Shown piece by piece: positions 9,952 to 44,520 of a stretch of 64,000 nt of DNA. A model generated the notes under the pieces. That model was not told where the DNA came from. It saw nothing but the letters and a program-made list of their open reading frames with translations, and ran no database searches. The position numbers and the translations under genes were made by a program. This stretch comes from Candidatus Binatia bacterium (GTDB lineage Bacteria; Desulfobacterota; Binatia; UBA12015), in the NCBI GenBank assembly GCA_029248525.1, contig JAQWJE010000049.1, positions 549,836-613,835 of the forward strand, in the 5' to 3' direction. The number at the start of each line of letters is the position of its first letter. Position 1 is the stretch's first letter.

Positions 9952-10764
9952 GTGCGCGGTTCCACCTCACCTGCGATTGTCCTCCGGACAATTCCCTTCG
10001 GCGAATCGGATAAAATCGTGACGCTTTTGTCGCAAGATGCGGGAAAGATCACTGGTATCGCCAAGGGAGCGAAGCGCTCACGGAAACGCTTTGGTGCCGC
10101 ACTCGAGCTCTTTTGCCACATTCGCCTCGATTACCGGGAGCGCCGGGGTTCCGACCTCGCATTTCTCGAACGCGCCGTGATTCTGCGTCCCTGGAGCGGA
10201 TTGGTCTCTTCTCTCGAGCGCTATGTCGCGGCGACTCATATCGTCGAAGTTGCTGATAAAATGTCCGCGGAACGCGAGGTTGGTAGTGACCTCTATGATG
10301 TCGTGGTGGCGGCGCTGGAGCGTCTGGAACGGGCAGAGCCCTGCGCTGCGACGCTGCGGATTTTCGAATTGGCCGTGCTGGCCGTGTCCGGTTACGGCCC
10401 TGATTTCTCGGTTTGCGTTGGCTGTTCCAGCGAATTTCAGGCGTTTGATCGGGGGGCCCGGTTGCACGTCGCTGGTGGGGGCCTGCTGTGCAGCCAGTGT
10501 GCGGGTCCGGAGGCCTCGGGCCTTCTTCTCGGACCCGATAGCGTAGATTGCCTGCACCGCCTGACGGGCCTGGTCGCCGTGGGGTTACCGAACGAAACAC
10601 GGGATACCTTCTGCGGAACCTCGCTTTTTTCGGTGGACGAACATTTGGAGATCGACTCGGCCCGGCACCGTGTCGCCAGTGAGCTCCGGCTGGCGGTCGC
10701 GGCGCTGATCGAACCCCATTTGCGCTCGCCCCTGCGCTCCCTCGATCTAATGAGCGGTATCTGA
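9952..10764 (+). CDS. recO: DNA repair protein RecO
   Basis: GTG start. IVLRTIPFGESDKIVTLLSQDAGKI is the typical RecO N-terminus, and a Cys-rich motif (CVGCSS...CSQC) follows. 270 aa. Confidence 0.8.
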   Translation: MRGSTSPAIVLRTIPFGESDKIVTLLSQDAGKITGIAKGAKRSRKRFGAALELFCHIRLDYRERRGSDLAFLERAVILRPWSGLVSSLERYVAATHIVEVADKMSAEREVGSDLYDVVVAALERLERAEPCAATLRIFELAVLAVSGYGPDFSVCVGCSSEFQAFDRGARLHVAGGGLLCSQCAGPEASGLLLGPDSVDCLHRLTGLVAVGLPNETRDTFCGTSLFSVDEHLEIDSARHRVASELRLAVAALIEPHLRSPLRSLDLMSGI

Positions 10765-11634
10765 CGGGCCCGAGCCAGGACCCAGTTTGTCGGCGTGGGC
10801 GTCCCGGATCGTGGTCAGGGAAAATTGCTCGCAGAGCCGCTTCAATTTGCTCGACATTTTTTGCCGGCCCAGCCGATTGAAGAATCGAATATAGCCCGGA
10901 GTTCCGGGCAGTTTGGGGGATTTCGGGTCGATTTCCCAAGGATGGGTGTAGACAATCGCCGGCCCGGATTCTCGGTTATATCGTTGCAGAAAGTGCGCGG
11001 TTACTGCGAAGGGAAGTGCCCGGAGGGTGAAACCGCCGCCGGCCAGAGGAAGAGTATGCCCTGTCGGGAGTTGAGACAGGGGCAGTGGAAACTCCCAAAG
11101 GCCCGACGCGAGGCGCCCGGGCAGACCTTCGGGGGTGATATACTCGGCTGCTGCTGGTTGGTAACGCAGCGGAAGCCAGCTGGAGTCCCATTGGAAGCCT
11201 GCCTCGGCGACACAATCCAGCGCCCATAGGTCCGCTGCTTCGCGGAGGAAAAACGGTGCCCGAAAACCGGCTACCGGACTGCCGACAAGGTTCTCGAGGG
11301 TTTCCCGCGACCGGCGAAGGTCTTCGCGGACCTCGTCGGGTTTCCGGTCGCCAAGAGGAAGATGTCGCGTGCCGTGGGAGGCAATTTCATGCCCGCGTGC
11401 GTGCGCTTCGCGCAGTAATTCCGGATGTTTTCCGGCCAGAGAGGCGAGGCAGAAGAGTGTGGCCCGCGTGTCGGTCTCCTCGAGAATCTCCAGCATTCTC
11501 CGGAGGTTTTCCTCGACTCGTGGGCCGTGCAGGGCAATTTCCGCGTCGGTCGCGGGGCCGGAGCCACGAGATTCATCATGGTACCAGTCCTCCACATCGA
11601 TGGTGAGAGCGTTACGAACCGGATTCATGGGCAT
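10747..11634 (-). CDS. Polysaccharide deacetylase family protein (NodB homology, DUF3473-type)
   Basis: TIDVEDWYH...FCLASLAGKHPEL...GHEIASHG are NodB-type metal-binding motifs. It resembles the EPS-locus-associated deacetylase subfamily. Confidence 0.7.
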   Translation of the reverse strand: MPMNPVRNALTIDVEDWYHDESRGSGPATDAEIALHGPRVEENLRRMLEILEETDTRATLFCLASLAGKHPELLREAHARGHEIASHGTRHLPLGDRKPDEVREDLRRSRETLENLVGSPVAGFRAPFFLREAADLWALDCVAEAGFQWDSSWLPLRYQPAAAEYITPEGLPGRLASGLWEFPLPLSQLPTGHTLPLAGGGFTLRALPFAVTAHFLQRYNRESGPAIVYTHPWEIDPKSPKLPGTPGYIRFFNRLGRQKMSSKLKRLCEQFSLTTIRDAHADKLGPGSGPSDTAH

Positions 11635-11679
11635 TTACTAGCAGACTTCGGCCGACCCGGGGGAGCGGGTCGGTCCCGG

Positions 11680-12321
11680 CTAAAAAATCCCCGGGATCAG
11701 GCGCCAGGAATGTGCCTGATAGTCTCGATAAGCGCTGCCGAATTTGGTTTCGAGCACGGCTTCCTCATTGGCCATGCGCAAAAGGGTCAACGGCAACCAG
11801 ACACCGAGGGCAACGCCGAGTGCGAGGGGGCTTCGGACGGCCAAAGCCGTTCCGACGGCGATCAAAAGCAGACTTGCGTAGCTGGGATGGCGAATCCACG
11901 CGAACGGACCTTCCTCGACGAGCCGGTGCTCGTTGGCAACCAGAAGCTTGACCGTGAAATGTTCGCCCATAACGCGCGCGACCCACTGCCGAAGAACGAG
12001 GCCCCCGGTGATCAGAAGAGCGCCGCTGATCTCGATCAGACTCGGCCACCGGAGGTGCATGATCGGCTCACGGTTCTGGAAGGCGCCTGTTGCGAGAATG
12101 GCGAGAAACCCGAGCTGCATGCCCCAACCGGTCCAATCCCCACCATTGGCCGACTCACCGGCTTCGCGGCGACCCAGATCGAAGGAGGTGAAGCCGGCGG
12201 CCAACGCAAGGATGATGGCCTCGGGTGAAGCCATTTGTCCCGCCCAACCCACAAGGAGGGCGGCAAGCCCCCCTCGGACCCAGGGGATCATGGTCGCGAG
12301 GTTTGAAGTAGAAGAAGACAC
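11680..12321 (-). CDS. Isoprenylcysteine carboxyl methyltransferase (ICMT)/phospholipid methyltransferase-family membrane methyltransferase
   Basis: Multi-TM protein with the C-terminal ICMT/PEMT motif: EHRLVEEGPFAWIRHPSYASLLL. Confidence 0.6.
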   Translation of the reverse strand: MSSSTSNLATMIPWVRGGLAALLVGWAGQMASPEAIILALAAGFTSFDLGRREAGESANGGDWTGWGMQLGFLAILATGAFQNREPIMHLRWPSLIEISGALLITGGLVLRQWVARVMGEHFTVKLLVANEHRLVEEGPFAWIRHPSYASLLLIAVGTALAVRSPLALGVALGVWLPLTLLRMANEEAVLETKFGSAYRDYQAHSWRLIPGIF

Positions 12322-12361
12322 ATACCCCTCATAGCCGAAAACGGCACCCGCAATCGAGTCC

Positions 12362-13363
12362 TCAGCCGACTCGGAGGCTGGAGGCGCTCGACCCCGGGCG
12401 TCTGCCGAATCGACCGGGGATCGTGAGATGCTGCGCGGAACCGGGACGCCAGGCGCGGCGTTGGCGCGCCACGCGCTCGCGACTGGACCGGTCGAGCCAG
12501 GGCCATAAAAGTCCCGCTCCGAGCAGATTCAGGTAACGCAGCACAAGGTAGAGGAGGTAGCCTCCACCCCCGAGGCGCTTCCAGACAAATAGGTCTTCGG
12601 AGATGGCGGCCTGTTGTTGTCGGGCCGGAGATTGTCGCCGAACGTCGCCACCATGGGTGACGGTGGCCTCCGCACAGAACAGAACGGAGCCCCCGGCCTG
12701 CTGCATGCGATGACAAAAGTCGAGCTCTTCACAGTAGAGGAAATAGTCGTCATCAAAGCCCCCGATCTCTTGCGCCTTCCGGCGTCGAGTCATGAGAAAA
12801 GAGCCTTGTACGGCATCGGTGATATGGGTCACGCTCTGCTGCTTCCGGGCCGTCTCCGGAAATTTTTCGGCCAGCACCTGCGGTGCCAGTCGCCGCAGAA
12901 AGGGGCGCGCCAGGGGTTGGTTGGCCAGCGCAGCCATCGGACCCGGCCAACTGGGTCGGGGGAAGGCACTTCTTTGGAAAGATCCATCACGATCCCGGTG
13001 CGCACAGCCGACGATATCGATCGGCGTTGGCCAATCTCGGGCAGCAGACAGGCAGGTTTCAATCGCGGCATTCTGCAGCCGGGTATCGGGGTTGAGCAGA
13101 AGCACCCAGTCGTGTCCGGCAATATCCAACCCGAAGTTTACTGCAGCAGCAAACCCCGGATTGTCGGGTGCGGTCCGCCAATGAACGTCGGGGTGCGCTT
13201 CCAGCACTCGATTTCGAGCGTCGGGGTTTCCTTCGTTGTCGATGACGATCAATTCCAATTCGAGATTGGGGCTTCTGCGCCGCACGCAGCTCAAGGCACC
13301 GAGAACTTCGTCGGTGTCTCGGTAGTGGACGAGAATGACGCTGACGGTGTTCACGGCCGACAT
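12362..13363 (-). CDS. Glycosyltransferase family 2
   Basis: VSVILVHYRD...LELIVIDNEGNPD... is a GT2 DxD-type fold. The start is set at MSAVNTVSV, which overlaps the upstream GT2 stop. Confidence 0.75.
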   Translation of the reverse strand: MSAVNTVSVILVHYRDTDEVLGALSCVRRRSPNLELELIVIDNEGNPDARNRVLEAHPDVHWRTAPDNPGFAAAVNFGLDIAGHDWVLLLNPDTRLQNAAIETCLSAARDWPTPIDIVGCAHRDRDGSFQRSAFPRPSWPGPMAALANQPLARPFLRRLAPQVLAEKFPETARKQQSVTHITDAVQGSFLMTRRRKAQEIGGFDDDYFLYCEELDFCHRMQQAGGSVLFCAEATVTHGGDVRRQSPARQQQAAISEDLFVWKRLGGGGYLLYLVLRYLNLLGAGLLWPWLDRSSRERVARQRRAWRPGSAQHLTIPGRFGRRPGSSASSLRVG

Positions 13364-14370
13364 ATCGGACACCTTGCCGGTCGTGGTTGGCCGGTGGCGA
13401 ACCTTAGCGAATTCCACCAGACACCGGCTCCCCAGAAGAGATGAATGGTGGGAAAGATAATCAGCAACCGTCCGAGGTGGGCTGTCGAACTCGGAAATGC
13501 AGTGATCATGGCTGCGACGACTACAAGCGAGCAATAGCTCGCAATCAGCAGATAGCAGGCCGAGGCCGCGAGGGGCAGGAATACCCCGAGGCTCGCCGTG
13601 ACCATCAGTGCCGCCAAAAACAGAGGTGGCACAAGTTGGCGCCATTTCATCGAGGCCGGATGTTTCCAGAGGGTATAAGCTCGCCAGCGCCCGTAGCGAA
13701 GATATTGATGGCGCAAGGCCGCCCAGTTGGACCGGGGTGTGTAGGTGGAATGAATGCGCGGCGAGAGCAGAATCCGCCCCCCCGACTCGCTCAGACGAAT
13801 ATTGAGTTCGGAATCTTCGTTGGCGTGGGCTTGCTCGTCAAACCCGTCCAGGCCGCGCAAGGTCCCCGTGCGCCAGGCTCCGAGATAGACCGTATCGACG
13901 AACTTCTCCTGATCGGAATAATGAAAATGGGAATTGCCCAGACCGAAGGGCGTACTCGTCGCCAGCGAAATCGCTTCGCCCATCGGACTTGTCCCCCGGG
14001 GGTTCATCCGACCGCCGACATTTTCGGCACGCCCCTCGCCCAGGAGTTGAATGCAAGTCTCCACATAGTCGGCGGCAATCGTCGTACGCGCATCGACCCG
14101 GATGAAGAATTCCCCACGCGCTTCCTTGAGGGCGAGGTTCAACGCGGGTGCCTGGTAGCGCGCCGGATTCCGGAGCAGGCGCAGGCGAGGTTCGTTGCTC
14201 GAGATGCTCTCCACGATCAAGCAGGTCTTGTCCCGGGAGCCTCCGTCGACCACGAGAATCTCGATTTCGTGAGCCGGCATGGTTTGCGTGCATATGGCCT
14301 CGAGCGTTTGTCGGATGGAGGGTTCCTCGTCGAGAACCGGAATCGCGATCGTGACTCGAGGGGCGCTCAT
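13351..14370 (-). CDS. Glycosyltransferase family 2 with C-terminal TM segments
   Basis: VTIAIPVLDEEPSI...ILVVDGGSRDKT is GT2. The start at MSAPRV overlaps the GT4 stop as ATGA. Confidence 0.75.
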   Translation of the reverse strand: MSAPRVTIAIPVLDEEPSIRQTLEAICTQTMPAHEIEILVVDGGSRDKTCLIVESISSNEPRLRLLRNPARYQAPALNLALKEARGEFFIRVDARTTIAADYVETCIQLLGEGRAENVGGRMNPRGTSPMGEAISLATSTPFGLGNSHFHYSDQEKFVDTVYLGAWRTGTLRGLDGFDEQAHANEDSELNIRLSESGGRILLSPRIHSTYTPRSNWAALRHQYLRYGRWRAYTLWKHPASMKWRQLVPPLFLAALMVTASLGVFLPLAASACYLLIASYCSLVVVAAMITAFPSSTAHLGRLLIIFPTIHLFWGAGVWWNSLRFATGQPRPARCPICRP

Positions 14371-15569
14371 GCGTTGGCTCTTTTTGTTTCGACGACTTCC
14401 GCATAGGTCTGGGCGAGTTGGTCCCCGAGAGCATCCCATCCGTAGTGGCGTCGGACGAGGTCGAGTCCGGCCGCACCCATTTTTTCGCGGGCGTTGCGAT
14501 CTTGCAGGAGTGCCGCGATTGCTCGCACGAGTTCATCCGGGGTGTCCGCGATCTGCAAATCTCTGCCGTCGACGGCCTCGATGCCCTCCGCTCCGACGGT
14601 CGTGGAGACCACGGGGCGCCCCAAAGCCATCGCCTCGAGAATTTTGATGCGGATTCCGGATCCTACGCGGGTGGGTGCCAGAAAGACAGCACCGCGAAGA
14701 ATCTCGGGTCGCACGTCGTTTACGTAGCCGGCAATATCGATGCCCTTGTTTGCGGCATCTTCTCGAGCTTCGGCCGGAATCTCCTTACCGACGATGGTAA
14801 GCCGCGCCTCGGGCTGCACCCTCCGCATCTCCGGCCAAACCTCCCGGCACAGAAAGAGCAGTCCGTCGCGGGTAGGCCCCCAGGAGTAGTCACCTGTGGT
14901 GACGACACGTTGCTCGTCGGGCAAGCAGTCGGGGTCGGGTTGGAAAAACTCGAGATCGACGCCATCCGGCAATACTTTCACGGAGGCTTGAGGTGCAAGT
15001 TGATGGAGCTGCGCGGCATCGACTGCTGTGACCGCGAGGCATTGGTCGAATCGCGCACACGATATTGCCTCATATCGAGCAACAGCGCGGGACTGAGCGC
15101 GGATCAGGGGTCGAAGAAAGGGTCGAGCCGCTGTTTCGGCGTATCTCTCGAGAATCCTGCTTTCGACATTATGTTGGCGAAGGATCGTAGGGAGCTGAGG
15201 TGGGATAGCCTGGACGTAGGCGGCCGTATGCAGATGGTCGAAGTGGACGATATCTATGTCGCGGCTTTCGCAGAGATCGGCGGCCCGTTTTGCAACGGCG
15301 CGCGAATGAAAGCGCGACATAGCCAGGGGGCGTTCGGAGGTGGCAGCATCCAGCAGCGAGAAGATGGATCCGGTCCGGTCCTCGACAGTGACGATATGAT
15401 CGCAGAGGGGTGCCAAGGCGGGAATGCCTTCGCGCGGATCTTCCTGGCAGAGACTCAGCAAGGTCAATTCATGGTGGCGGCCGATCTGGCGCACCAACTG
15501 GTAGAGCGCCATCCGACCACCGTTGTCGGGCGGCCAGGGGAGCTGAGGCGTGATTTGCAGAACATGCAT
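14367..15569 (-). CDS. Glycosyltransferase family 4 (group 1)
   Basis: 400 aa; MHVLQITPQLPWPPDNGGRMALYQ... and a C-terminal GT4 EX7E-type region. Confidence 0.8.
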   Translation of the reverse strand: MHVLQITPQLPWPPDNGGRMALYQLVRQIGRHHELTLLSLCQEDPREGIPALAPLCDHIVTVEDRTGSIFSLLDAATSERPLAMSRFHSRAVAKRAADLCESRDIDIVHFDHLHTAAYVQAIPPQLPTILRQHNVESRILERYAETAARPFLRPLIRAQSRAVARYEAISCARFDQCLAVTAVDAAQLHQLAPQASVKVLPDGVDLEFFQPDPDCLPDEQRVVTTGDYSWGPTRDGLLFLCREVWPEMRRVQPEARLTIVGKEIPAEAREDAANKGIDIAGYVNDVRPEILRGAVFLAPTRVGSGIRIKILEAMALGRPVVSTTVGAEGIEAVDGRDLQIADTPDELVRAIAALLQDRNAREKMGAAGLDLVRRHYGWDALGDQLAQTYAEVVETKRANA

Positions 15570-15578
15570 GATTTGGTC

Positions 15579-15599
15579 GGAGGGACTCGAAGTCCCTCC
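15579..15599. terminator. Perfect 9-bp stem / 3-nt loop hairpin (GGAGGGACT-cga-AGTCCCTCC) between the chemosensory operon and the GT operon
   Basis: Seen directly in the sequence. A T-rich run (TTACTTCTTG) follows on the plus strand only. It may act as an intercistronic terminator/attenuator or an RNA-stability element. Confidence 0.4.
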
Positions 15600-15646
15600 T
15601 TACTTCTTGCATGTCGTGGTGGAAATTTCTGCCAGTGGCGTCGATT

Positions 15647-18430
15647 TCAGAGTTCGGGAAGGACCGCCTCAAGTGCGGCGATGACGGCCTCCTGTGTGAA
15701 GGGTTTGGTGAGATAACCGCTTGCCCCTGATTGTTGCGCCAATTGGCGGTGTTTTTCACTGCCGCGTGAACTGCAGATAATGACGGGAATTTCCTTGAGC
15801 TGAGGATCGTTTCGGACCGCATGAAGGAGCTCGTATCCATGCATTCGCGGCATCTCCAGATCGGTAATCAGAACACGGTATTGCCCACTGCGCAGCCGGT
15901 CGAGAGCCTCGCGGCCGTCGACAGCGGTGTCCCCGGAAACGCCGGCGCCTTCCAGAAAATGATGCGCGAGTTTACGGACACTGATCGAATCTTCCGCCCA
16001 CAGGACGGCTGCTTCGGAGATTTCGGTTCGTTTCTCGAGTGGACGGTCCGCACCCGAGGGGTGTTCCCGCCAAGCGGCATGAAGTCGGCTGGCGTCGAGG
16101 GCAAAGACGACATTTCCATCCCCTCGCAGCGTCGCACTGCTGATGAACGGATGATTATGGAAAAGAGGGCCGAGCGGCCGAATTACCGCTTCCCGCTGCG
16201 ACTCGATCTTCTCCACGAGCAGAGCGACCCGAGTGTCGCCACAGCGCAGGATCACGGCGGTTTGTGGGTCGGCACCGGGCGGGCATCCCAGGAGACGGTG
16301 CAGCGGCAGTGCCGGAAGCCAATCGTTTTCGAAGGCAACGAGATAGCGTTCTTCCTGCTCCTGCAGATCCTCGGGATTGATATTGATCACGGTTTCGACC
16401 GGGCCCTGTGTCAGGGCGATGGTCTCCGTCCCCGCCCGCAACAGGAGGATTTGCTCAATCATCGAGGTCAGGGGGATATGAATTCGAATTTCGGTGCCCT
16501 GCTCGCGCTCGGCTTGAATCGTGACCGAACCTCTAAGTCGGGCAACCTCGGATGCGACGACATCCATGCCAACGCCGCGACCCGATACCGTGTCGGCTGT
16601 TTCCTGCGTCGAGAATCCCGGCTCGAAGATCAGGCCGGAGAGGTAATCAGGGTCGGACGAGCGGCTCTCGTCGAGGATTTTACGCTCTCGGGCGCGGTTC
16701 CGGATCGAATTGAAATCCAGACCGGCGCCGTCATCCTGAACACGAATCTCGACATGGCCGTGGCTTTGTTTCGCATCCAGTGTGATTCGCCCTGCAGCCG
16801 ATTTGCCCTGCTGGCGACGTTCCTCAGGCCGCTGAATTCCGTGGGCGACGGCGTTGCGGACGAGGTGGAGCAAGGGGCCGTATAGAGACTCGATCAGAGA
16901 TCGATCGAGTTGAACGTCCCCCCCATGGCATTCAAAAAGGACTTCTTTTCCGGACTGACGTGCCGCATCTCTTGCGGCATGGGCGAGTCGGCGGTGCAAG
17001 GAGTCCAGCGAAACCAGACGCATATCGCTCACAGTGCGTTGCAGGCTGGAGGTCACTTTGGAGATCTGACGCGACTCGTCGCCAAGAGAGTCAAGAAGCA
17101 GCCCCACCTGTTCGACGACCTCCGAGGTATCCGATGCGAGTTCGACCAGAGTACGGGTCAGGACGTTGAAGTCGTCATATTTATCAAATTCGAGATCCGT
17201 AAAAGCATCGAGGTGTGTAGGCCCGCGGGCCTCGCCTGTGGGTGTTGGTGTTGCCGCGGGTTTTGGCTGATGGAATTCAAAACTTCGAAACCCCTCAATC
17301 GTTTCCCCCAGTCGCATCCGGTCGACGCTGAGCTTCTCCCGCATTTCCTGAATGGCCGACATTCCATCGTCGAGTTGTGTCCGGCTGACCACCAATTCGC
17401 TGATGCGGCTCATTAGAAGATCCAGTCGGCTGCTGTGCACCCGAATCACGCCACCATCGGTATCTTTGGCCGGGGCGATGGGGGGCGGTCGTTGCGGCTG
17501 GGAAGCCGACTCCCCGGCCGTTCGAAGCGTGTTCTCCGCAGGGGGGGGCTGCGCGGTCATCTTCGCCAGGGCCGTCTCGACAAGATCTTTCGGATTCCGC
17601 AGGATCAGACTTTGGTGCTGTTGTTGTCTGGATTCGGCAATCAACCCGGCGGCCGAGTCGAGGATCTGCAGAAGACAATCGTGCAGATCCGTGGCGGGGA
17701 CGGATTTGCGCTTTTCCAGAACTTCTTCGAGCAGCGTCTCGCCGGCCTCCATCTGGGCGACAATCCCGGCTAGCTCCACGGCCGCCGCCGCACCTTTCAG
17801 CGTATGGAATTGGCGAAAAAGAGTCCGCAAAGGAGCGGGGTCACCGGGCTCCGCTTCCAGAAGAACCATTGCATTTTCCGCAGCCTCGAGCGCGGCATCT
17901 GCGTCGAGGCGGAAGGCGTCGAGCATCTCCCTGTCAAAGGCTTCCCTTTCGGGGTCGGGAGGCGCGGCAGGTGCGGTCTCGGTTGGCCCGTCGGATTCGC
18001 CTTGCCGAGCTGCCGTCGCCGCTATTTCGAGGGCTTCCTCGGGTGAGGGGAGACCGGCTTCAGCGCATAATTTGCACAGGCTGGGACTGATTTCAGAGAA
18101 AAAGGCATGGCTCAGAGGTAGTTCCGGACCCTGTTCCTCCGGGCCTTCGAATGCGGTCTGCAAATTGCGGCCGAGTTCACTCAAGTCCTCCATGCCGACA
18201 GTTGCCGCACTTCCCTTCACCGTATGGAATTGACTCCCAAGGGCAGCACAGGCTTCTTCCTGCTGGCCCGGATCGGCAAGGGCCGCGAGATATTGCTCAA
18301 GGCTCTGAAGGATTTCGGGGAGCTCTTCGCGAAATGTTTCTCGCAGGTCCTCAGCGAGAGAGCTCTCAAAGCTGTCCAGTTCCGGCGATATGGGCAGGGA
18401 TTTACTATGCGTTTCGTTTTCGGAATCCAT
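15647..18430 (-). CDS. CheA-CheY hybrid histidine kinase (two Hpt domains, HATPase, CheW-like domain, C-terminal receiver)
   Basis: Two Hpt motifs (FHTVKGSAATV and FHTLKGAAAAV), HATPase_c (VQDDGAGLD...GRGVGMDV), a CheW-like domain and a REC domain (VLITDLEMPRMHGYEL...YLTKPF). Confidence 0.9.
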   Translation of the reverse strand: MDSENETHSKSLPISPELDSFESSLAEDLRETFREELPEILQSLEQYLAALADPGQQEEACAALGSQFHTVKGSAATVGMEDLSELGRNLQTAFEGPEEQGPELPLSHAFFSEISPSLCKLCAEAGLPSPEEALEIAATAARQGESDGPTETAPAAPPDPEREAFDREMLDAFRLDADAALEAAENAMVLLEAEPGDPAPLRTLFRQFHTLKGAAAAVELAGIVAQMEAGETLLEEVLEKRKSVPATDLHDCLLQILDSAAGLIAESRQQQHQSLILRNPKDLVETALAKMTAQPPPAENTLRTAGESASQPQRPPPIAPAKDTDGGVIRVHSSRLDLLMSRISELVVSRTQLDDGMSAIQEMREKLSVDRMRLGETIEGFRSFEFHQPKPAATPTPTGEARGPTHLDAFTDLEFDKYDDFNVLTRTLVELASDTSEVVEQVGLLLDSLGDESRQISKVTSSLQRTVSDMRLVSLDSLHRRLAHAARDAARQSGKEVLFECHGGDVQLDRSLIESLYGPLLHLVRNAVAHGIQRPEERRQQGKSAAGRITLDAKQSHGHVEIRVQDDGAGLDFNSIRNRARERKILDESRSSDPDYLSGLIFEPGFSTQETADTVSGRGVGMDVVASEVARLRGSVTIQAEREQGTEIRIHIPLTSMIEQILLLRAGTETIALTQGPVETVININPEDLQEQEERYLVAFENDWLPALPLHRLLGCPPGADPQTAVILRCGDTRVALLVEKIESQREAVIRPLGPLFHNHPFISSATLRGDGNVVFALDASRLHAAWREHPSGADRPLEKRTEISEAAVLWAEDSISVRKLAHHFLEGAGVSGDTAVDGREALDRLRSGQYRVLITDLEMPRMHGYELLHAVRNDPQLKEIPVIICSSRGSEKHRQLAQQSGASGYLTKPFTQEAVIAALEAVLPEL

Positions 18431-18452
18431 GCAAAGCCCCTTTCGAGTCCGT

Positions 18453-19877
18453 TCAGACAGAAGGTGCGACCGAGTTTGGTTGCTGGATCGTCAGGCATAA
18501 TTCGAGAAGCGCCTCGCTCCGATGACGAGTCGTTTCCTCGGCGACTTCCAGCTTGCGGGCGACGTTTTCGATTTGTTCGAGGGCAGATTCAATCTGGTCG
18601 GCCGCGGCGCATTGTGACGTCGCCGTATGGGTGACCGCATCGACAGCGGCATGCGCGCTTTCGGCTTCCTGTCGCAGCTTCTGGATCGAGCGCTCGGCCG
18701 CCGCCGCTGCAGCCGAGTGCATTTCAATCCGCTCGCCTTGCCGGTCCATTCCACCGACGGCTTCGCCAATATCATTCTGAATTCCGCGAATCAGCCGATC
18801 GACTTCCTTGGCTGCCTGAGAGGCTTTCTCCGCAAGCTTGCGCACCTCCTCGGCGACGACGGTAAAACCGTGGCCCTGCTCTCCGGCCCTCGAGGCTTCG
18901 ATGGCTGCGTTCAGCGCGAGCATATCGGTCTGTGCCGACATTTTGGAGATGGTGCCGGTGATCGCGGCTATCTGCATGGAACGCTCACCCAGCCGTTTGA
19001 TCTTGACGGTCGCAGCCCGGGTTTCCCGCTGGAGTCCCTCCATGCCCGCATTGAGGTCGGAGATAGCGGACTGGCTCTGCTTGCCGGCCTGCTCGGCGAG
19101 GCTGCTGGAGTCGATGGCCTCCTGGCATAAACTCGTGAGTCGCTGGTTCTGGACCTTGAGTTGATCGGCATCCTCCGAGGTGGCGGCACAGACCTCCCTT
19201 TGGGCCAGAGCATCGCCGTGCGCAGCATGGGCCGCCAGCCGAACCTGCTCAGCCGAATGTCCGATCCCCTGTGATATATTCGCGAGGTCCTCATCGCGAG
19301 CACCGAGCTCCTCGAGGGTCTGGTTGAGCCGTAGCCCCAGCTCTGCAAAATCTCCCTTGAGATCGCATCGAGAGTCCCGTTCACCGGCCTGATGCCGAGA
19401 CAGGGTGTTTGTCATGGATTTGATGGCTCTCTCGACAACGATTCGATGCTCGACGAGGTGCTGGTGCTGGAGATCCCAGCTGTCCAGAATACGATTGACC
19501 GCCCGACAGGATTCAGCTGCAGGCCCGGAGCCCTCGGCGGGTAGTCGGGTTTCATAATGTCCGCGTTGCATCTTGCGCAGAGCGGCCGGTAGATCCCGCA
19601 GGCCTCCCGCGAAGGACTGCCAGAGGTGTCGGCCGAGAACCCAGCCGAAAACGCTAGCCAGGATTGCCGAGATCCCCGTCGCCAAACTCAGGGAGAGGAC
19701 GCCCGGCTCCATCAGAAACCCTTCGAGCACGAGGAAGGCCAATATCCCCTGCATGCCTGCAATGATCATGGCCAGGAGGGCGATTTTCCCCGCGCCTTCT
19801 CGACTCCAATCGTGATCCTTGCGTGAGGCAGACGCGACTCCTGGAGCCAGGGGGGTTAATTTCTCTGCAGTGGCCAT
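18453..19877 (-). CDS. Methyl-accepting chemotaxis protein: two closely spaced TM helices, no periplasmic domain, HAMP, MCP signalling domain
   Basis: MCP highly conserved domain ([38 protein letters not shown]). The N-terminus has two TM segments separated by only a few residues. Confidence 0.9.
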
Positions 19878-20359
19878 GGCTCACCTCTCTCGTCTGTCGT
19901 GATTGCCGCAAAGTCGGCCCGAATAACCTCCGCCACCTCGCGGAGAAAAAGCTGTCCGTCCAAAATAATGGTCTGGCTGTCGCCTCGGCGCACCACACCC
20001 CGAATCAGGTGCTGTGGCATCCCGAGTTCGTGAGGGGGTAGGGAGTGAATCTCCCAGGGCGCGAAATGTTGTACGGCAAGAACTTCGTCGACACCGGCTG
20101 CGACTCGCAGGTCGCCTTCGGCGAGAACGATCAGGCTCCGGGGACATTCGTCGCCCGAAGGTTGGCGGTGGAGGAAAGTCGCCAGTGAGATCAGTGGCAG
20201 GATTTCTCCACGCAGATTGAAGGCACCCAGAAGTCCGGCGGGCGCACGTGGAATTTCCGTATACCGCCGTCGCTCGACGACTTCGCCTGCGACCTCGGTA
20301 GAGAACGCGAATTGGGTCTGGTTGCTGCGAAAGAGGCAATGGTCGCCGTGCGCATTCAT
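19856..20359 (-). CDS. cheW: Chemotaxis coupling protein CheW
   Basis: 167-aa CheW-like domain ([19 protein letters not shown]...[20 protein letters not shown]). Confidence 0.85.
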
Positions 20360-21456
20360 AGCTCGATGACCTCGGGCAGACCCGCTTCCGTCGGAGGAGA
20401 GGCTGTTCCTGTCAGGGCGGGAATGGTGTTCAGCGACTCATGGCAGGGCAGATCGGCATCGGCGGGATCCTCGTTCTCGTTGGATCCCAGACGACAGAGG
20501 CAACTGCGTTCCGGAAGTCTCTGCAGGGCCCGGGTCAGCGTTTCATCCGGAGGTCCGTCGAGAAGAAGGACTTCCGGTTGCAGAATCGCGGCGAGGTGGG
20601 GCAGGAGTTCGAAATGGCGGTAGAGGAAAATCCATCTGGATTTTTCGGCCTCGGAGATCTCGCTCTCGAGGGCCTCTGTCACGGATGCTGCCGAGGTCGA
20701 GACCAGAATGCGAGAGGGAACCACTGGAACTCGAAGATATTGTCCCTGCGTGCGGGCGAGGAGCAGGCTCGCCTGACAAAGCGCGGTATGCGCCGCGACG
20801 AGTTCGGCCCCGGGATCGATAATTTGCCCTTGGGGGTTCAGGTGGATGTTCCGAGGGATCCTCTCACGCCGCCGGCGAAGTGTCAGGACTTCAGAGGTCG
20901 CCTTGTCGAGCAGTTCGAGAATGGACTGGTTATCGGTTGTGACGCTTCGTTGGCTGGCCAGCGAGGCGGTCTCCTCCAGCGATTGGAGGAGGTGGCGAAA
21001 CCCGACTTCGACGGACTGCAATCCGCCGCGTTGTGGCGCCGATCTTCCCGGCGCAGGGCGATCGACCCGAGGAGGTGCTGTGTGGCGATTTTCTGCCAAT
21101 GCATGGGAGACAACACTCAGAACAACCTTGGGCTTGAAAGGCTTCGTGATGTAGCTGACGACATTCTGCGCATCCTCGTACGCCTGTCGAATCGAGGTTC
21201 CCTTGGCGGATACCAGCACAACAGGTGTGGATTGCGTGAGCGGAATTTCTTCCAATGCCGCGCAGACGTCGGGCCCCCTCATATCGGGCAGGACGTAGTC
21301 GAGAAGGATGAGCTGCGGATCGAAATTGGCCGCAGCCTCGAGCGCATCTTTCCCGGTAGCCGCGAGTTGAAGATCGTAGCCCTCGGGTTTGAGGATCATC
21401 TCCAACGCGCGTCGAATTGTCAGTGAATCGTCGACGATCAGAATACGAGCGCTCAT
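20356..21456 (-). CDS. Response regulator: N-terminal CheY-like receiver fused to a ~240-aa C-terminal domain of unknown function
   Basis: The REC domain is complete (ILIVDDS...LILLDYVLPDM...YITKPF). The C-terminal half has no recognisable motif. Its ATG overlaps the upstream stop and its stop overlaps the cheW start. Confidence 0.8.
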   Translation of the reverse strand: MSARILIVDDSLTIRRALEMILKPEGYDLQLAATGKDALEAAANFDPQLILLDYVLPDMRGPDVCAALEEIPLTQSTPVVLVSAKGTSIRQAYEDAQNVVSYITKPFKPKVVLSVVSHALAENRHTAPPRVDRPAPGRSAPQRGGLQSVEVGFRHLLQSLEETASLASQRSVTTDNQSILELLDKATSEVLTLRRRRERIPRNIHLNPQGQIIDPGAELVAAHTALCQASLLLARTQGQYLRVPVVPSRILVSTSAASVTEALESEISEAEKSRWIFLYRHFELLPHLAAILQPEVLLLDGPPDETLTRALQRLPERSCLCRLGSNENEDPADADLPCHESLNTIPALTGTASPPTEAGLPEVIEL

Positions 21457-21968
21457 GAATGGCGCTCTCGTACACGCTGCGCAAGGAGGTCGGGAGAAAA
21501 GATCATCAATGGTGTTTCCTCACGAAATTGCAGATGGATTCCGAACGAACCATCGTCCAATCGGGCGAGCGGGACGATCGGGTACGCGCCCAGGTCCTCA
21601 ATGCCGACAAATGTCTCGGCTCCGACAGCGACGGTGCCGATCGTGGTCTGGACCAGCGCGGTCCAACCGTGGGTGCGTGGCCCGGGAGCCGGACGAGCAC
21701 CGCTGATCTCCGTCAGTTCCAGTCGGGGAAAATCTGCAGGGGGCGGCGGTCCATCGGATCGACTCTCGGTATCCGTATGATGAAAAATCCGCGTAACGGT
21801 CCCCATCGCGAGCCCGACCGGGCAGCCTTCGCTTTCCAGGATTACCAACAGATTGTCGGTGGCCAGTTGTTCATCTGCCTCATGCACGCTCACGATTCCC
21901 CCGTGGAAGTTGCCCTGACTGCTTCTTTCCCACTCGCCCTGCGATGCTGGATCGGAAGTCCCCGGCAA
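21453..21968 (-). CDS. Hypothetical protein, first gene of the chemosensory operon (possible degenerate CheW-like domain)
   Basis: 171-aa ORF with a TTG start at 21968 (start uncertain). There is weak resemblance to CheW segments (LLVILESEGCPVGLAMGTVTRI). Coding is supported mainly by the ATGA coupling to the next gene. Confidence 0.35.
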   Translation of the reverse strand: MPGTSDPASQGEWERSSQGNFHGGIVSVHEADEQLATDNLLVILESEGCPVGLAMGTVTRIFHHTDTESRSDGPPPPADFPRLELTEISGARPAPGPRTHGWTALVQTTIGTVAVGAETFVGIEDLGAYPIVPLARLDDGSFGIHLQFREETPLMIFSPDLLAQRVRERHS

Positions 21969-22071: not shown

Positions 22072-23856
22072 TTTATGTACGGAGACCAGGTTGGAGAGGT
22101 TGTTGAGGGCGGCGGGGGCTCGGAGTCGACCAGATTTTTGGTGATCTCGCTCCTGCAGACTCTGGTGCAACTGCCATCGGGGTTTAACGATTCATCCCGC
22201 GATTCGGCTTTCGATTCGGCTCTGTCGGTCCTGCAGGATCGGTTGGGTCTTTCCGGCGTCTATCTTTTGGGGCCGCGCTGCCGCTCGGGACTGGCCGCAG
22301 GAGGGATTCCCGCAGAAGTCGAGGATATTCTTTTTGAGGGGGAAGCTACGGGGGAGTCGCTGTTGGGGCGGGTCTCCAGAGAGCAGCGTATTTTCCTGCT
22401 CGGTCGACGCAGCACCGAGCCCTGCATGAATCGAATCCGCCAGCTGGATCTGGATTGGCAGGCCGTCGCGCTGGTTCCTCTTCGACCAGCATCCGGCGCG
22501 TCGGTAATTTTGGTGCTTGCCGCATCTGACGGCACGCTCCTCTCTCCTGAAATTCTTGCGACCTTGCACCCGGTCTTTCGCTTTATCGCGGGGTCTCTGA
22601 ATCTTTCCGATTCAGGCGAGCCATCGCCCGAGGGAGCGATGCCAGGGGTCGAGGACCTCGAGGTCGAACTCGAGGCGCTTCGATCACGCAACACCGAGGT
22701 GGAGGATCTCCTCCGCGTGGCGGGCGAGGCAACCGCTGCCGGCGAAGCAGGGATGCGGCTCGAGATCGAGGATGCGCGCGTCCAGATCGCGGAGCTGGAG
22801 ACCTCCCTTGCCAGCGCGACAGCGAAGCCCGCGGAGGTTCCCTGCGAAGATTGTATGGTTCTGCGCCGCAAGGCCGCGGCGAACGAGTTACGCATGCAGA
22901 CTCTGGAGCAGGATCTGGCCGAGCTTCGCCTGCTCGCCGATGTCGCGGAAGTCGCTTCTGTTGCGATCGATGCGCCCGCGAACAAGGTGGCGCTCTCTCC
23001 GGTGATTGCTCTCGAGGACGAGCCGGTAGAAGCGGTGGCCCTTGGCGCCATGGCCGAAGCTGCGGTCGCCGAGTTGGCGAGTGTCGCTGAACCCGAGAGG
23101 ATGGATCCGCCAGACGAACTGCCGGGGCCGGTTCTGGTTCCCGAGGCGGCGAAGGTCGCTGGCGCTCCGGAGCCCTGGGTTCTCTGTTGTGCCGAGGGTT
23201 CGCGTCCGATGTTTGAAGAACTCGCCAGATTTGCCGGTGATCAAGCGATGCCGATCTTTTCATCGGAGGATCTCGAAATATCGCCGGGCCGACGCCTCCT
23301 GCTGGTGAACCTGCTCGTGGATGATCCTGCCGAGATAGTTGCGGCGATGGAGGAATCTCACCTTGATCTGCGGCTTCTCGCCTATGCCGCCCGAGGCAAG
23401 AGTGGCGCTGCATTGGGAGAAATTGGATGGTTGGCCTCATCGCTTCCCGCGGAGGAGGCGCTGGCCGAGATCCGAAACCATCATGGGCTGCCGGAACGAA
23501 CACTGCTGGTCAGCGCGCGACTACGCGAAATGGCGCCCCTGCGAGAAGCTCTGACCAATGAAGGGAGTTCGGTGGCCATGGCTTGTGATGCGCGGCAGGC
23601 TCTCGACCTCCTCGAGATTGTCCAGCAACCCGATGCGGTGATCCTCGATTTGGCAGTGGAGGGAGCGGTGACGCTCGCTCTCGCCGCACGCCTCTATCGG
23701 GAAAACCCTTCGACAGGGTTGCAGATTTTCCTCCTCGCGCCGGAGAAGTCGAGGCTGCCGGAGTTTCGCGCCGATACTGCATGGGCCGAGGTTTTGCGCC
23801 CTTTCGGGATCCCCGACCTGCAGCGTTTGATCGCGCCCTGGGCCCGATTGCCCTGA
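22072..23856 (+). CDS. Hypothetical regulatory protein: GAF-like N-terminal domain, Ala/Glu-rich coiled coil, two receiver-like (pseudo-receiver) domains
   Basis: The ORF track gives 21973 (TTG). An ATG at 22072 with GGAGA 5-6 nt upstream is preferred. A GAF-like block (VYLLGP...IFLLGRRS...VALVPL) is followed by heptad-rich AELETSLASATAK...LRMQTLEQDLAELRLLADV. REC-like segments lacking the N-terminal acidic pair follow (LLLVNLLVDDPAEI; AVILDLAVEGAV...FLLAPEKS). Confidence 0.5.
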   Translation, partial: FMYGDQVGEVVEGGGGSESTRFLVISLLQTLVQLPSGFNDSSRDSAFDSALSVLQDRLGLSGVYLLGPRCRSGLAAGGIPAEVEDILFEGEATGESLLGRVSREQRIFLLGRRSTEPCMNRIRQLDLDWQAVALVPLRPASGASVILVLAASDGTLLSPEILATLHPVFRFIAGSLNLSDSGEPSPEGAMPGVEDLEVELEALRSRNTEVEDLLRVAGEATAAGEAGMRLEIEDARVQIAELETSLASATAKPAEVPCEDCMVLRRKAAANELRMQTLEQDLAELRLLADVAEVASVAIDAPANKVALSPVIALEDEPVEAVALGAMAEAAVAELASVAEPERMDPPDELPGPVLVPEAAKVAGAPEPWVLCCAEGSRPMFEELARFAGDQAMPIFSSEDLEISPGRRLLLVNLLVDDPAEIVAAMEESHLDLRLLAYAARGKSGAALGEIGWLASSLPAEEALAEIRNHHGLPERTLLVSARLREMAPLREALTNEGSSVAMACDARQALDLLEIVQQPDAVILDLAVEGAVTLALAARLYRENPSTGLQIFLLAPEKSRLPEFRADTAWAEVLRPFGIPDLQRLIAPWARLP

Positions 23857-33644: not shown

Positions 33645-35399
33645 GTGGGCAGCGTAGAATCATTGGTCAAGCGGGGTGGCGGTACCGAGCGTAATGCGCA
33701 GGTTCCGACCAGCCGTGTCGGGGAGCTTCTCCTGCGACAGGGTCTGATTGCCGAGGGCGACCTTCGCCTGGCGCAATCTCGTTTGCGTGAAGCTGGTGGT
33801 GCACTGACGACTCATATTGTGCGCCAATGTGAGATCACGGAGGCGGATCTCCTGACGGCCTTGCAGGAAGAATATCATCTTCCGGTCGTCGATCCCGGAT
33901 CGCTGGAACTTGCGGATGAGTTGGTGGATGTTTTGCCCGCAGTAATCGCGATCAAATTTCAGGTTGTCCCGGTTAATTTGAGCCGAACGACGCTGACGCT
34001 GGCGATGGCCGACCCCTCCAACCTGGCTGCCATCAATGAAGTCAAATTTCTCACCGGATTCGATGTCCGTGCAGCCATTGCGAGTCCGACATCGGTCGAG
34101 AAATGTATCGAGCGCCACTACGAGCAGAACGTCAATTATGGCGACGTTCTCTCCGAACTTGGTGATGAGGATATGGAAGTCGTTCGAGCGGACGAAGACT
34201 TCGACCTCAAACAGTTGGAAAAAGCCACGGAAGAGGCGCCGGTCGTCAAGCTGGTCAACGCGCTTTTAGCCGATGCGATCAAGAAAAGAGCTTCGGATAT
34301 TCACATCGAGCCGTACGAGAAATCTCTGCGCGTTCGCTTTCGTGTGGATGGCGTTCTGCAAGAGATCATGCAGCCGCCGCTGAAATTGAAGAACGCGATT
34401 ACCTCTCGGATCAAGGTGATGGCCTCTCTCGATATTGCGGAGCGCCGGTTGCCGCAGGACGGACGTATCAAGGTGAAATTGGCGCAGGGGCGTGAGATCG
34501 ATCTACGTGTCTCGACCTTGCCGACCCTTTTCGGTGAAAAAGTGGTTCTGCGAATCCTCGACAAGAATGGCGTGCAACTCGACCTGGAAAAGCTCGGATT
34601 CACAGGCCAATCGTTGGCGCATTTTCAGGAGGCGATCGCCCAGCCCTACGGGATGATTCTCGTTACGGGCCCGACAGGGTCGGGCAAGACCACGACTCTG
34701 TACTCGGCGCTTGCGCAATTGAATGATGCGGGCACCAATATCTCGACAGCCGAGGATCCCGTCGAATATAATCTGCCCGGCATCAATCAGATGCAGACCC
34801 ACGAGGATATCGGTCTGAATTTTGCGGCCGCGCTGCGATCGTTTCTTCGTCAGGATCCCGATGTGATCATGGTGGGTGAGATCCGCGATTTTGAAACCGC
34901 CGAAATTTCGGTGAAAGCTGCACTGACCGGGCATCTTGTCTTTTCGACAGTGCATACCAACGATGCGCCTTCGACGGTCAATCGTCTGCTGAATATGGGC
35001 ATCGAACCGTTCCTGATCGCTTCTTCGGTGAATTTGATCATGGCGCAACGTCTGGCTCGAAGTGTTTGTCCAAAATGCCGCGAGCCCTATGAATTACCGA
35101 TGCAGGCGTTGATTGACCTTGGCGTCCCTGCCGAGGAAGCCGCCCCTGTCCAGACATGGAAAGGGAAAGGCTGCTCGCATTGCGGGGATACAGGTTATCG
35201 CGGGCGCACCGCGCTCTACGAAGTGATGCGGGTCACCGATGAGCTCCGGGAGTTGGTGCTTGCCGGAGCGACAGCCACCGAACTCAAGCAACAGGCCGTT
35301 CAGGATGGAATGGTCACCCTGCGGCAGGCGGGGATCACGAAAATCTCCGCCGGGGAGACCACGGTGGAAGAGGTCATGCGCGTCACTATGGCCGACTGA
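33645..35399 (+). CDS. pilB: Type IV pilus assembly ATPase PilB (GspE family)
   Basis: N-terminal T2SE_Nter domain (VGELLLRQGLIAEGDL...VPVNLSRTTLTLAMADPSN...VKFLTGFDV) closely resembles Myxococcus PilB. Walker A GPTGSGKTTTLY and a tetracysteine motif (CPKCR...CSHCGDTG) follow. GTG start; a TTG at 33663 is also possible. Confidence 0.9.
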   Translation: MGSVESLVKRGGGTERNAQVPTSRVGELLLRQGLIAEGDLRLAQSRLREAGGALTTHIVRQCEITEADLLTALQEEYHLPVVDPGSLELADELVDVLPAVIAIKFQVVPVNLSRTTLTLAMADPSNLAAINEVKFLTGFDVRAAIASPTSVEKCIERHYEQNVNYGDVLSELGDEDMEVVRADEDFDLKQLEKATEEAPVVKLVNALLADAIKKRASDIHIEPYEKSLRVRFRVDGVLQEIMQPPLKLKNAITSRIKVMASLDIAERRLPQDGRIKVKLAQGREIDLRVSTLPTLFGEKVVLRILDKNGVQLDLEKLGFTGQSLAHFQEAIAQPYGMILVTGPTGSGKTTTLYSALAQLNDAGTNISTAEDPVEYNLPGINQMQTHEDIGLNFAAALRSFLRQDPDVIMVGEIRDFETAEISVKAALTGHLVFSTVHTNDAPSTVNRLLNMGIEPFLIASSVNLIMAQRLARSVCPKCREPYELPMQALIDLGVPAEEAAPVQTWKGKGCSHCGDTGYRGRTALYEVMRVTDELRELVLAGATATELKQQAVQDGMVTLRQAGITKISAGETTVEEVMRVTMAD

Positions 35400-35537
35400 T
35401 CGAGGTTGCTCCATTCAAGAAACCATCAGCGGCTACCGAAGGATCAGACAGAAATTGGGTCGAGTTGAGGGATGCATGAGTGCTGCTCAATGCAGGGTTG
35501 GCACGAACAAGCGGACGATTCGGGGAGGGATTTCAAA

Positions 35538-36653: not shown

Positions 36654-36661
36654 GGTTTCTG

Positions 36662-39600: not shown

Positions 39601-39815
39601 GAATGGCGCGGCTCTCCCGCCGCGATTGTTGCCGCCCCAGCATGCGCACGTTTTGTCAGCGGTGTTCGGATTTTGCCACCGCGTGTACGAAAACGTCGAA
39701 ATCCTGCCGCTCGGGCAGCGTCAGAAACATGACGTTTCGGACAAATCCCGTCCATGGAAGTAAATAAGTCAATAATAACAAGGACTTACCTGAATTACTC
39801 CACGGGCGCTCCACG

Positions 39816-39831
39816 TGGCACCGACCTTGCA
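39816..39831 (+). promoter_or_regulatory. Sigma-54 (-24/-12) promoter of pilA: TGGCAC-cgacc-TTGCA
   Basis: An exact match to the TGGCAC-N5-TTGCW consensus lies 97 nt upstream of the pilA ATG. The imperfect inverted repeat GTCAGAAAC-N5-GTTTCGGAC (39720-39742) about 85 bp further upstream is a candidate UAS. Confidence 0.7.
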
Positions 39832-40314: not shown

Positions 40315-40339
40315 ATTTCATCTCAGCGAGCTTTCGAGA

Positions 40340-44518: not shown

Positions 44519-44520
44519 GT

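Follow-up and report, generated by a model that had tools for sequence, protein, structure and literature searches.

A reduced chemosensory operon, probably of the type IV pilus class, in an uncultured marine Binatia bacterium

Introduction

Which cellular process is controlled by a chemosensory operon that encodes a receptor, two adaptors, a kinase and a response regulator, and neither of the adaptation enzymes CheR and CheB? This question is raised by a locus on contig JAQWJE010000049.1 of a Candidatus Binatia bacterium (assembly GCA_029248525.1), which was analysed in a window of 64,000 nucleotides (contig positions 549,836 to 613,835, forward strand; all positions given below for this contig refer to the window). 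An initial annotation had concluded that the composition of the locus differs from that of the Pil-Chp system (pilGHIJK-chpABC) and had proposed an alternative-cellular-function (ACF) pathway. The comparative analysis described in this work points to another identity: the locus is likely a reduced member of the type IV pilus (Tfp, Pil-Chp-like) class which controls pili, possibly together with exopolysaccharide (EPS).

The operon and its conservation

Five minus-strand open reading frames (ORFs) between positions 15647 and 21968 form the operon, and their coordinates were exactly those of the five co-oriented ORFs listed initially. In the order of transcription they encode a CheW-fold adaptor, a response regulator termed REC-X, CheW, an MCP (methyl-accepting chemotaxis protein) and CheA. 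A sixth component, which lies outside the coordinates covered by the initial annotation, is encoded divergently.

22075..23856, plus strand: divergent partner, 593 aa, with GAF-like N-terminus, coiled-coil middle and C-terminal pseudo-receiver
21888-22074: divergent promoter region, putative, with motifs TTCTTGAC and GCTCAAGTC (L091 6357-6543; L092 6319-6465; L008 5206-5408)
21453..21887, minus strand: first operon gene, most likely a diverged CheW-fold adaptor, 144 aa (homolog HMM, hhalign, AlphaFold2, Foldseek)
20356..21456, minus strand: REC-X, response regulator in PilG position, 366 aa (Pfam REC, residues 5-115, 7.7e-20)
19856..20359, minus strand: CheW adaptor in PilI position, 167 aa (PF01584, 2.1e-22)
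18453..19877, minus strand: MCP, 474 aa (PF00015, MCPsignal, 1.3e-33)
15647..18430, minus strand: ChpA-like hybrid kinase CheA, 927 aa (Pfam Hpt twice, H-kinase_dim, HATPase_c, CheW, Response_reg)

Pfam annotation of each ORF, which had been suggested as a check, recovered REC, CheW, MCPsignal and CheA domains; the small first ORF of the window gave no match at E<=1. The gene junctions were read from the sequence. Coupling by 4 nt, as described initially, applies to the adaptor/REC-X (21453/21456) and REC-X/CheW (20356/20359) junctions, both of which are ATGA overlaps, but not to CheW and MCP, which overlap by 22 nt (19856-19877), nor to MCP and CheA, which are separated by a 22-nt spacer.

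An identical CheA was found on 11 marine-metagenome contigs and in the NCBI metagenome-assembled genome GCA_029246955.1; NCBI lists 'Candidatus Binatia bacterium' as the organism of this protein. In the genome collection that was searched, from which the species of the window itself is missing, the best match reached 50%. Related loci are referred to below by L numbers. The reading frames of all operon genes are intact, and dN/dS between the window and L091 was 0.07-0.17 for the five operon genes (dS being saturated). Across the relatives compared, no variation was seen in the phospho-accepting His and Asp, in the pocket of the receiver or at the tip of the MCP hairpin. As the architecture is unchanged in lineages down to 57% CheA identity and dN/dS is low, the che genes are not decaying; these comparisons indicate purifying selection on all six genes, the divergent partner included. 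The chemosensory operon of this uncultured marine Binatia bacterium is real and conserved.

The intergenic region between partner and adaptor genes contains two short motifs kept across lineages, TTCTTGAC followed by GCTCAAGTC about 25-30 nt downstream, which may represent a promoter or operator. A scan for consensus promoters (sigma-70 included) and terminators revealed nothing convincing for the operon or the divergent region, and an Rfam search of the window detected no known RNA family.

Signalling proteins of the operon

The kinase is composed of two histidine phosphotransfer domains (Hpt1 and Hpt2), an extended dimerisation region, HATPase_c, a CheW-like P5 domain and a C-terminal receiver, and has no P2 domain. 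The Hpt histidines are H69 (in FHTVKG) and H209 (in FHTLKG) and the receiver aspartate is D857; all three are conserved in an alignment of 25 CheA homologs, and CheA-core structures in the PDB were matched at 1.9e-63. The initial annotation of this CheA, with its pair of Hpt domains and its fused receiver, is therefore confirmed. The CheA proteins of L008-L010 possess, at their N-termini, some 170-185 residues with one further Hpt domain that the window CheA lacks.

The MCP begins with 27 cytoplasmic residues, which are followed by a transmembrane (TM) hairpin predicted from hydropathy, by two HAMP-like segments and by the signalling domain, about 40 heptads long. Hydropathy placed the two hydrophobic segments at residues 28-56 and 58-82, with the helices of the hairpin at about 31-54 and 59-82 and an outer loop of approximately 5 residues between them. 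Accordingly, the receptor does lack a periplasmic ligand-binding domain, as had been noted, but it is not of the cytoplasmic type since the two-helix hairpin anchors it in the membrane. In MCPs of the relatives TM1 and TM2 are located near residues 30 and 420, respectively, which implies that a periplasmic sensor of about 350 aa was deleted in the window MCP; residues 56-461 of the latter align with residues 412-806 of the L008 MCP, and in the L009 MCP the periplasmic sensor is a dCache_1 domain. The cytoplasmic domains could be aligned gap-free with MCPs of Binatia, Acidobacteria and Nitrospira, and the MCPs of L091 and L092 have an identical architecture. The distance from the hairpin-tip glutamate E333 to the C-terminal 'FR' column is about 138 residues, which by column count corresponds to approximately 20 heptads per arm. 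In the classifications of Alexander and Zhulin and of Wuichet and Zhulin, Tfp-class systems have a dedicated MCP of the 40-heptad class.

The first TM helix carries polar or glycine residues (G41, Q43, G44 and E52) that do not vary among the three marine lineages. Such constancy would be unusual in a simple membrane anchor, and the residues may form an intramembrane sensing or partner-binding site. In the C-terminal arm of the signalling domain, a QQ/EEQ pair is conserved in MCPs of CheR/CheB-positive loci and degenerate in the clade of the window, as expected after loss of methylation; this is suggestive only. A regular expression for canonical methylation sites gave zero matches in the MCPs. 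Because CheR/CheB-positive relatives were likewise unmatched, the expression was uninformative, and the column-wise comparison of the QQ/EEQ pair was used instead.

REC-X carries the canonical receiver residues D53, S83 and K105; no other canonical receiver of the operon stands on its own. In an AlphaFold2 model the receiver is followed by a disordered Pro/Arg-rich linker, three long helices and a small alpha/beta domain. Orthologs share 41% identity over 318 aa (L008) or 63% inside the REC domain (L010 and L009), and one homolog bears the database name PilG. Beyond REC, the C-terminal part matched neither Pfam nor NCBIfam families, a PDB sequence search returned REC only, and a single-sequence phmmer search of 1.84 billion representative proteins yielded only 3 matches, so that this part is nearly unique in sequence. 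No enzymatic or DNA-binding output domain was detected in Pfam and related searches. The possibility that the C-terminal part is a PATAN domain was dismissed, as comparison by hhalign with the C-termini of REC-PATAN proteins gave a non-significant probability of 3%. Among 29 family members a C-terminal tail (L/I-E-V-V/I-x-L) is conserved behind a variable, predicted-disordered stretch, and this tail may act as a docking peptide. In the window it is encoded within 20356-20380.

The first gene of the operon had been listed as an unknown of 171 aa (21453-21968). Its likely start is the GTG at 21887, which gives 144 aa and agrees with all homologs and with the gene calls. The protein is most likely a strongly diverged second CheW adaptor with the double-SH3-like beta-barrel fold of CheW, as judged by profile and model comparisons. 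PF01584 was matched by eight of the 11 aligned family members (best 1.1e-15), and hhalign matched the family collinearly to a CheW alignment across 127 columns (probability 75%, E 2.4e-5). The AlphaFold2 model (pLDDT 80, pTM 0.75) retrieved, in a Foldseek search of the PDB, CheW or CheA-P5 structures as all of its top 18 matches (probability 1.0, TM scores 0.55-0.66). A hidden Markov model (HMM) built from the homologs also matched the syntenic small ORFs of L011 (4.8e-9), L013 (1.9e-7) and L008 (4e-3).

In distant Binatia loci the operon is headed by a 336-aa fusion of an N-terminal CheW domain and a C-terminal PATAN (DUF4388) domain.

L009 3772-4782 and L010 3067-4077: CheW-PATAN gene, 336 aa; also present in L017 and L022

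The L008 ortholog of the adaptor matched the CheW domain of these fusions at 1e-11, and the adaptor of the window looks like the CheW half that was left after loss of PATAN; no PATAN domain was found in the window at E<1. The 167-aa CheW protein has orthologs in L008, L009 and L010.

The divergent partner gave weak GAF_2 and Response_reg matches, which recurred at the same positions in all four orthologs. In its receiver-like domain the central aspartate is kept, and the DD pair, the T/S and the lysine are gone. Its C-terminus matched the divergent gene of L008 (4e-29) and is homologous to the C-termini of coiled-coil proteins of 1400-1496 aa in L009 and L010 (8e-13 and 2e-11), whose genes sit right after CheA/CheB in these two loci.

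Loss of adaptation enzymes in a comparative series

A CheR and a CheB methylesterase domain from a related Binatia locus served as tblastn queries. Neither enzyme was detected in any of the six frames of the 64-kb window, even at E<1; in 50 other loci, cheR and cheB were easily recovered with these queries. Precomputed Pfam calls for genes over roughly 5.6-64 kb of the window contained neither of them. The reported lack of CheR and CheB in operon and window was hence verified, and no cheR or cheB follows on the same transcript. A second MCP, CheW or CheA, or a plain CheY, was not found further in the window. Related loci fall into a graded series of gene contents, listed here with their CheA identities.

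L010 (full gene calls) and L022 (tblastn matches only), 43%: fullest set, Pil-Chp order
L009 (full gene calls) and L017 (tblastn matches only), 41-42%: L010-type order minus CheR and CheB
L008, L011, L013 and L016, 48-53%: divergent partner, 144-aa adaptor, REC-X, CheW, MCP (about 800 aa) and CheA, usually followed by an ICMT-family and a deacetylase gene
Window, L091 and L092, 57-100%: MCP cut to 474 aa, CheA to about 930-970 aa, glycosyltransferase genes GT4-GT2-GT2 inserted after CheA

L010 encodes CheW-PATAN, REC-X, CheY, CheW, MCP (about 860 aa), CheR, CheA (about 1100 aa), CheB and a giant coiled-coil protein. In L022, CheR and CheB matches flank CheA, and matches to CheW-PATAN, the REC-X C-terminus, the MCP and the giant protein are ordered as in L010. 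A neighbour-joining tree of the CheA core placed the window in a clade made up entirely of CheR/CheB-less loci (clade I; bootstrap 100), the sister of which holds both states (clade II). Given this topology, at least two losses of CheR/CheB must have occurred within Binatia. Loci with complete flanks were tallied as follows.

Binatia: 9 loci without CheR/CheB, 2 with
Nitrospirota: 9 without, 1 with
Myxococcota: 4 without, 0 with
Acidobacteriota: 0 without, 36 with

The core cheR-cheA-cheB is present in 36 of 36 acidobacterial loci, the kinase gene having cheR immediately upstream and cheB immediately downstream. Their MCPs (L023-L089) are also short, about 480-515 aa, and so a short receptor is not tied to the loss of adaptation enzymes. 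The absence of these enzymes is a lineage-specific loss and not the mark of a different class. Judged by the gene content of its relatives, the lineage of the window has apparently lost CheR, CheB, the single-domain CheY, PATAN, one Hpt domain and the periplasmic sensor.

The series documents, within one uncultured phylum, the stepwise reduction of a Pil-Chp-type system from a full set with CheR, CheB, two regulators, CheW-PATAN, three Hpt domains and a large periplasmic sensor to a six-gene minimum under purifying selection. It thereby reveals what a pilus-type chemosensory array can do without. Pilus-type systems without CheR/CheB and receptors without sensor domain are already known, and no new category is needed. 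Work on pilus signalling gains three uncharacterised parts, namely the C-terminal domain of REC-X, the adaptor derived from CheW-PATAN and the GAF-like/coiled-coil/pseudo-receiver partner. To our knowledge, neither this accessory set nor such a clean reduction series within one phylum has been described.

Class assignment

The order response regulator-CheW-MCP-CheA in the window is the Pil-Chp-type order without CheR and CheB. About 45 CheA homologs are labelled ChpA by JGI, these being automated names. The window CheA combines several Hpt domains, the lack of P2 and a receiver, a combination that is typical of the Tfp class but not exclusive to it, as it is shared with the ACF class. Of all multi-Hpt CheAs, 93% belong to the ACF or Tfp class, and within the Tfp class a CheY-like receiver is found on 94% of them (PMC10782961); the supplements of that study make no mention of Binatota. 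On the upstream side of the operon, a complete type IVa pilus cluster begins at a distance of 11.7 kb.

33645..51093, plus strand: type IVa pilus cluster (gene calls, Pfam)
33645-35399, plus strand: PilB, passes the TIGR02538 cut-off (755 > 676)
35472-36653, plus strand: PilT, passes the TIGR01420 cut-off (479 > 319)
36662-37885, plus strand: PilC, closest to Myxococcus-type PilC
37885-39600, plus strand: sigma-54 activator with PAS, AAA+ and HTH domains
39754-40314, plus strand: pilin
40441-41241, plus strand: PilD
Also in the cluster, plus strand: minor pilins
47785-51093, plus strand: PilY1

The sigma-54 activator beside the pilin gene has no receiver domain and is therefore not a classical PilR. 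The N-terminus of PilB contains an MshEN-type region with a weak, below cut-off match to the c-di-GMP-binding motif NF053729.

ChpA-named homologs, the full Pil-Chp order in L010 and L022, the pilus cluster and the frequency of CheR/CheB-less relatives, together with the lack of both enzymes in pilus-type systems of cyanobacteria (10.1101/2021.06.11.447907), point to the Pil-Chp/Tfp class. The initial view that the composition sets the locus apart from Pil-Chp and indicates an ACF pathway is not supported.

Alternative explanations

Several observations weigh against assignment to a pilus-controlling system. PilB, PilT and PilC are absent within 10 kb of CheA in every related locus, which makes the link to pili loose. 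The target of REC-X is a guess because its output domain belongs to no recognisable family, and the lineage has lost PATAN, which in cyanobacteria is the known output that binds the pilus motor. The class was assigned from synteny, domain architecture and automated ChpA names and not from a phylogeny with reference CheAs. The absence of CheR and CheB applies to the 64-kb window, and orphan cheR or cheB genes elsewhere in the genome could exist. Finally, for the marine subclade, the glycosyltransferases downstream of CheA fit control of EPS at least as well. They belong to a co-oriented block of polysaccharide genes.

10747..15569, minus strand: polysaccharide block (Pfam)
14367-15569, minus strand: GT4
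13351-14370, minus strand: GT2
12362-13363, minus strand: GT2
11680-12321, minus strand: ICMT/PEMT-family methyltransferase
10747-11628, minus strand: CE4 deacetylase with DUF3473
15555..15646 (L091 12794-12885), minus strand: structured CheA-GT4 intergenic RNA, predicted (folding, two sequences)

Because these genes lie directly downstream, the operon may have a role in polysaccharide control. The locus would then be an ACF-type, Dif-like pathway in which the regulator switches on the downstream glycosyltransferase, ICMT and deacetylase genes or enzymes, and pili are at most an upstream signal; we regard this as possible but unlikely. The block starts 77 nt past CheA on the same strand, and the series GT4-GT2-GT2-ICMT-deacetylase is kept in three marine lineages. 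ICMT and/or deacetylase genes follow CheA in most clade-I loci, and the ICMT gene of L008 overlaps with the stop codon of CheA. The best NCBIfam matches of GT4 (TIGR03087) and of the deacetylase (TIGR03006), both below their cut-offs, are PEP-CTERM/XrtA EPS-locus families, and the RNA structure that covers the GT4 start codon hints at a regulated coupling. Dif of Myxococcus xanthus acts on EPS downstream of pili, and the Dif proteins listed (DifA, DifC, DifD, DifE and DifG) include no homolog of CheR or CheB (PMC4319316). An EPS pathway is at odds, however, with the occurrence of the three glycosyltransferase genes, which are present only in the window, L091 and L092 and absent from L008-L016; this distribution marks them as an apparently recent insertion limited to the marine subclade. 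L013 has the same che operon without ICMT or deacetylase, clade-II relatives show the Pil-Chp order with no EPS genes nearby, and REC-X has no enzymatic or DNA-binding output domain. The multi-Hpt kinase with its receiver is moreover unlike DifE, which is a conventional CheA with neither multiple Hpt domains nor a fused receiver.

It is very unlikely that the operon serves flagellar (F-class) chemotaxis, with its CheR, CheB and CheY encoded elsewhere in the genome. Flagella are encoded by most Binatota orders (PMC8262859). No sign of an F-class system was seen, however: the kinase has two Hpt domains, no P2 and a fused receiver, CheR, CheB and plain CheY are missing from the window, and no flagellar genes are among the genes called in it. 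Relatives hold cheR and cheB inside the operon in Pil-Chp order, which argues for loss of these genes and not for their dispersal. A homologous CheA in 'bacterium HR30' also speaks against an F-class system, provided that this genome belongs to order HRBin30, as we assume from its name. That order was reported to lack flagellar genes (PMC8262859); the same study covers flagella and contains nothing on pili or chemotaxis. The progressive loss of parts along the lineage would also be compatible with a decaying remnant which has lost signalling and is heading to pseudogenisation. This is highly improbable in view of the intact frames, the architecture shared with distant relatives, the low dN/dS of the five genes and the invariant phospho-acceptors, receiver pocket and MCP tip.

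Proposed signalling route

For a reduced pilus-class system the following route is proposed. MCP, both adaptors and the kinase would form a membrane array. Input would not be a periplasmic ligand; it would have to come by way of the hairpin in the membrane, the HAMP region or partners in the cytoplasm, and might report, for instance, pilus or membrane state. The kinase would autophosphorylate on an Hpt histidine, and phosphate would pass to D53 of REC-X as output and to D857 of the kinase's own receiver, a presumed phosphate sink which would take over from a phosphatase the resetting of the signal. Methylation-based adaptation or memory would not exist. Phosphorylated REC-X would act via its lineage-specific C-terminal domain, probably with the GAF-like/coiled-coil/pseudo-receiver partner, and its target would be the nearby type IVa pilus machinery (extension and retraction, or polarity). 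Co-expression of the glycosyltransferase genes is likely in the marine subclade, which would couple pilus-associated polysaccharide to the operon.

A bolder idea is that the ICMT-family methyltransferase and the CE4 esterase/deacetylase have taken over the reversible modification of the receptor or another array component, as an adaptation branch independent of CheR and CheB. We give it only a very slight chance. ICMT and deacetylase genes as strict companions of CheR/CheB loss were rejected, since L013 lacks both genes and neither was detected in L009 and L017. In a milder version MCP, two adaptors, REC-X and the pseudo-receiver partner would constitute a non-adapting switch which reads pilus or membrane state and gates polysaccharide synthesis post-translationally.

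Comparison with known systems

The Pil-Chp system of Pseudomonas aeruginosa shares with the window the order of response regulator, CheW, MCP and CheA, which in sister Binatia is extended to the full order. Its association with pili may have a counterpart in the type IVa pilus cluster 11.7 kb from the operon. A multi-Hpt kinase without P2 and with a C-terminal receiver is likewise common to both (PMC10782961). Two CheW-type adaptors are present in either system, and Chp of P. aeruginosa needs both of its adaptors, PilI and ChpC (PMC13599512). In contrast to Pil-Chp, the window has no PilK (CheR), no ChpB (CheB) and no PilH-like single-domain CheY, its kinase has two Hpt domains instead of eight or nine as in ChpA, and its MCP lacks the periplasmic domain. 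The regulator in PilG position is extended by about 240 C-terminal residues of no recognised family. Further differences are the second adaptor, which stands first in the operon and is apparently derived from CheW-PATAN, and the divergent partner. CheR and CheB are present in Pil-Chp but are not required for membership in the Tfp class.

Cyanobacterial Tax3/Hmp systems (pilG-pilH-pilI-pilJ-pilL; hmpA-E plus hmpF) control pili and are also devoid of CheR and CheB, and cyanobacterial PATAN domains bind PilB/PilC (10.1101/2021.06.11.447907). Both systems have a hybrid multi-Hpt CheA with a receiver, and PATAN is used by relatives of the window. The gene of the coiled-coil partner, hmpF, is found beside the hmp operon. 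Whereas described PatA-type proteins join PATAN to a receiver, the Binatia relatives have it fused to CheW, and the window lacks it; the window further differs from Tax3/Hmp in having one response regulator instead of two, no photoreceptor, and a host from another phylum. Pili and motility polysaccharide are co-regulated in cyanobacteria (PMC9239167) and in Myxococcus (PMC4319316).

The likeness to Dif is one of composition, that is, of a chemosensory system whose listed proteins include neither CheR nor CheB. The receptor DifA is an MCP which is anchored in the membrane and has next to no periplasmic domain. Dif differs from the window by a CheC phosphatase and a plain CheY. As an analogy only, the 144-aa adaptor and the divergent partner resemble FrzB and FrzS of M. 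xanthus in general make-up; FrzB is a diverged CheW which organises arrays, and FrzS is a pseudo-receiver and coiled-coil protein acting on pilus polarity. The Frz system, however, has CheR (FrzF), CheB (FrzG) and a cytoplasmic receptor, and the receiver-like domain of the partner described here is C-terminal.

Intergenic RNA and neighbouring genes

In the 77-nt spacer between CheA and GT4, an inner hairpin (GGAGGGAC/GTCCCTCC, positions 15579-15599) is predicted inside an outer helix, in which GACAUGC pairs with GCAUGUU over the GT4 start codon. The minimum free energy was -31 kcal/mol (z -4.5). Both helices recur in L091, where the inner stem (GAGAGACC/GGTCTCTC) shows compensatory changes. 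On the basis of these two sequences the RNA may be a translational control element. In L092, the relative at 57% identity, the spacer (12911-13140) is 230 nt long and contains two copies of a direct repeat of about 45 nt (GGTAGRATCCGAACGACAGAGCGGAA..CAGGTCATTCTCCCG) in place of the hairpin.

The block HisRS, partner gene, che operon, RecO and GrpE-DnaK-DnaJ is syntenic across the clade. RecO and GrpE-DnaK-DnaJ adjoin the che operon in both Binatia clades (window 5900-10764; L008, L009, L011-L017, L022, L091 and L092), and even in L009, L017 and L022 DnaK is located about 9 kb from CheA. In Nostoc (PMC9239167) and, with StkA, in Myxococcus (PMC4319316), DnaK-type chaperones connect the activity of pili with the production of polysaccharide. 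As the dnaK operon looks like a housekeeping one (78-95% identity), its adjacency to the che genes may be inherited synteny only. Two long minus-strand ORFs (608 and 495 aa) at 25308-27904 proved to be two 4-nt-coupled genes for an Acyl_transf_3 membrane acyltransferase (403 aa) and MurB (370 aa). This pair sits between PPDK and HisRS, an arrangement which is kept in L091 and L092.

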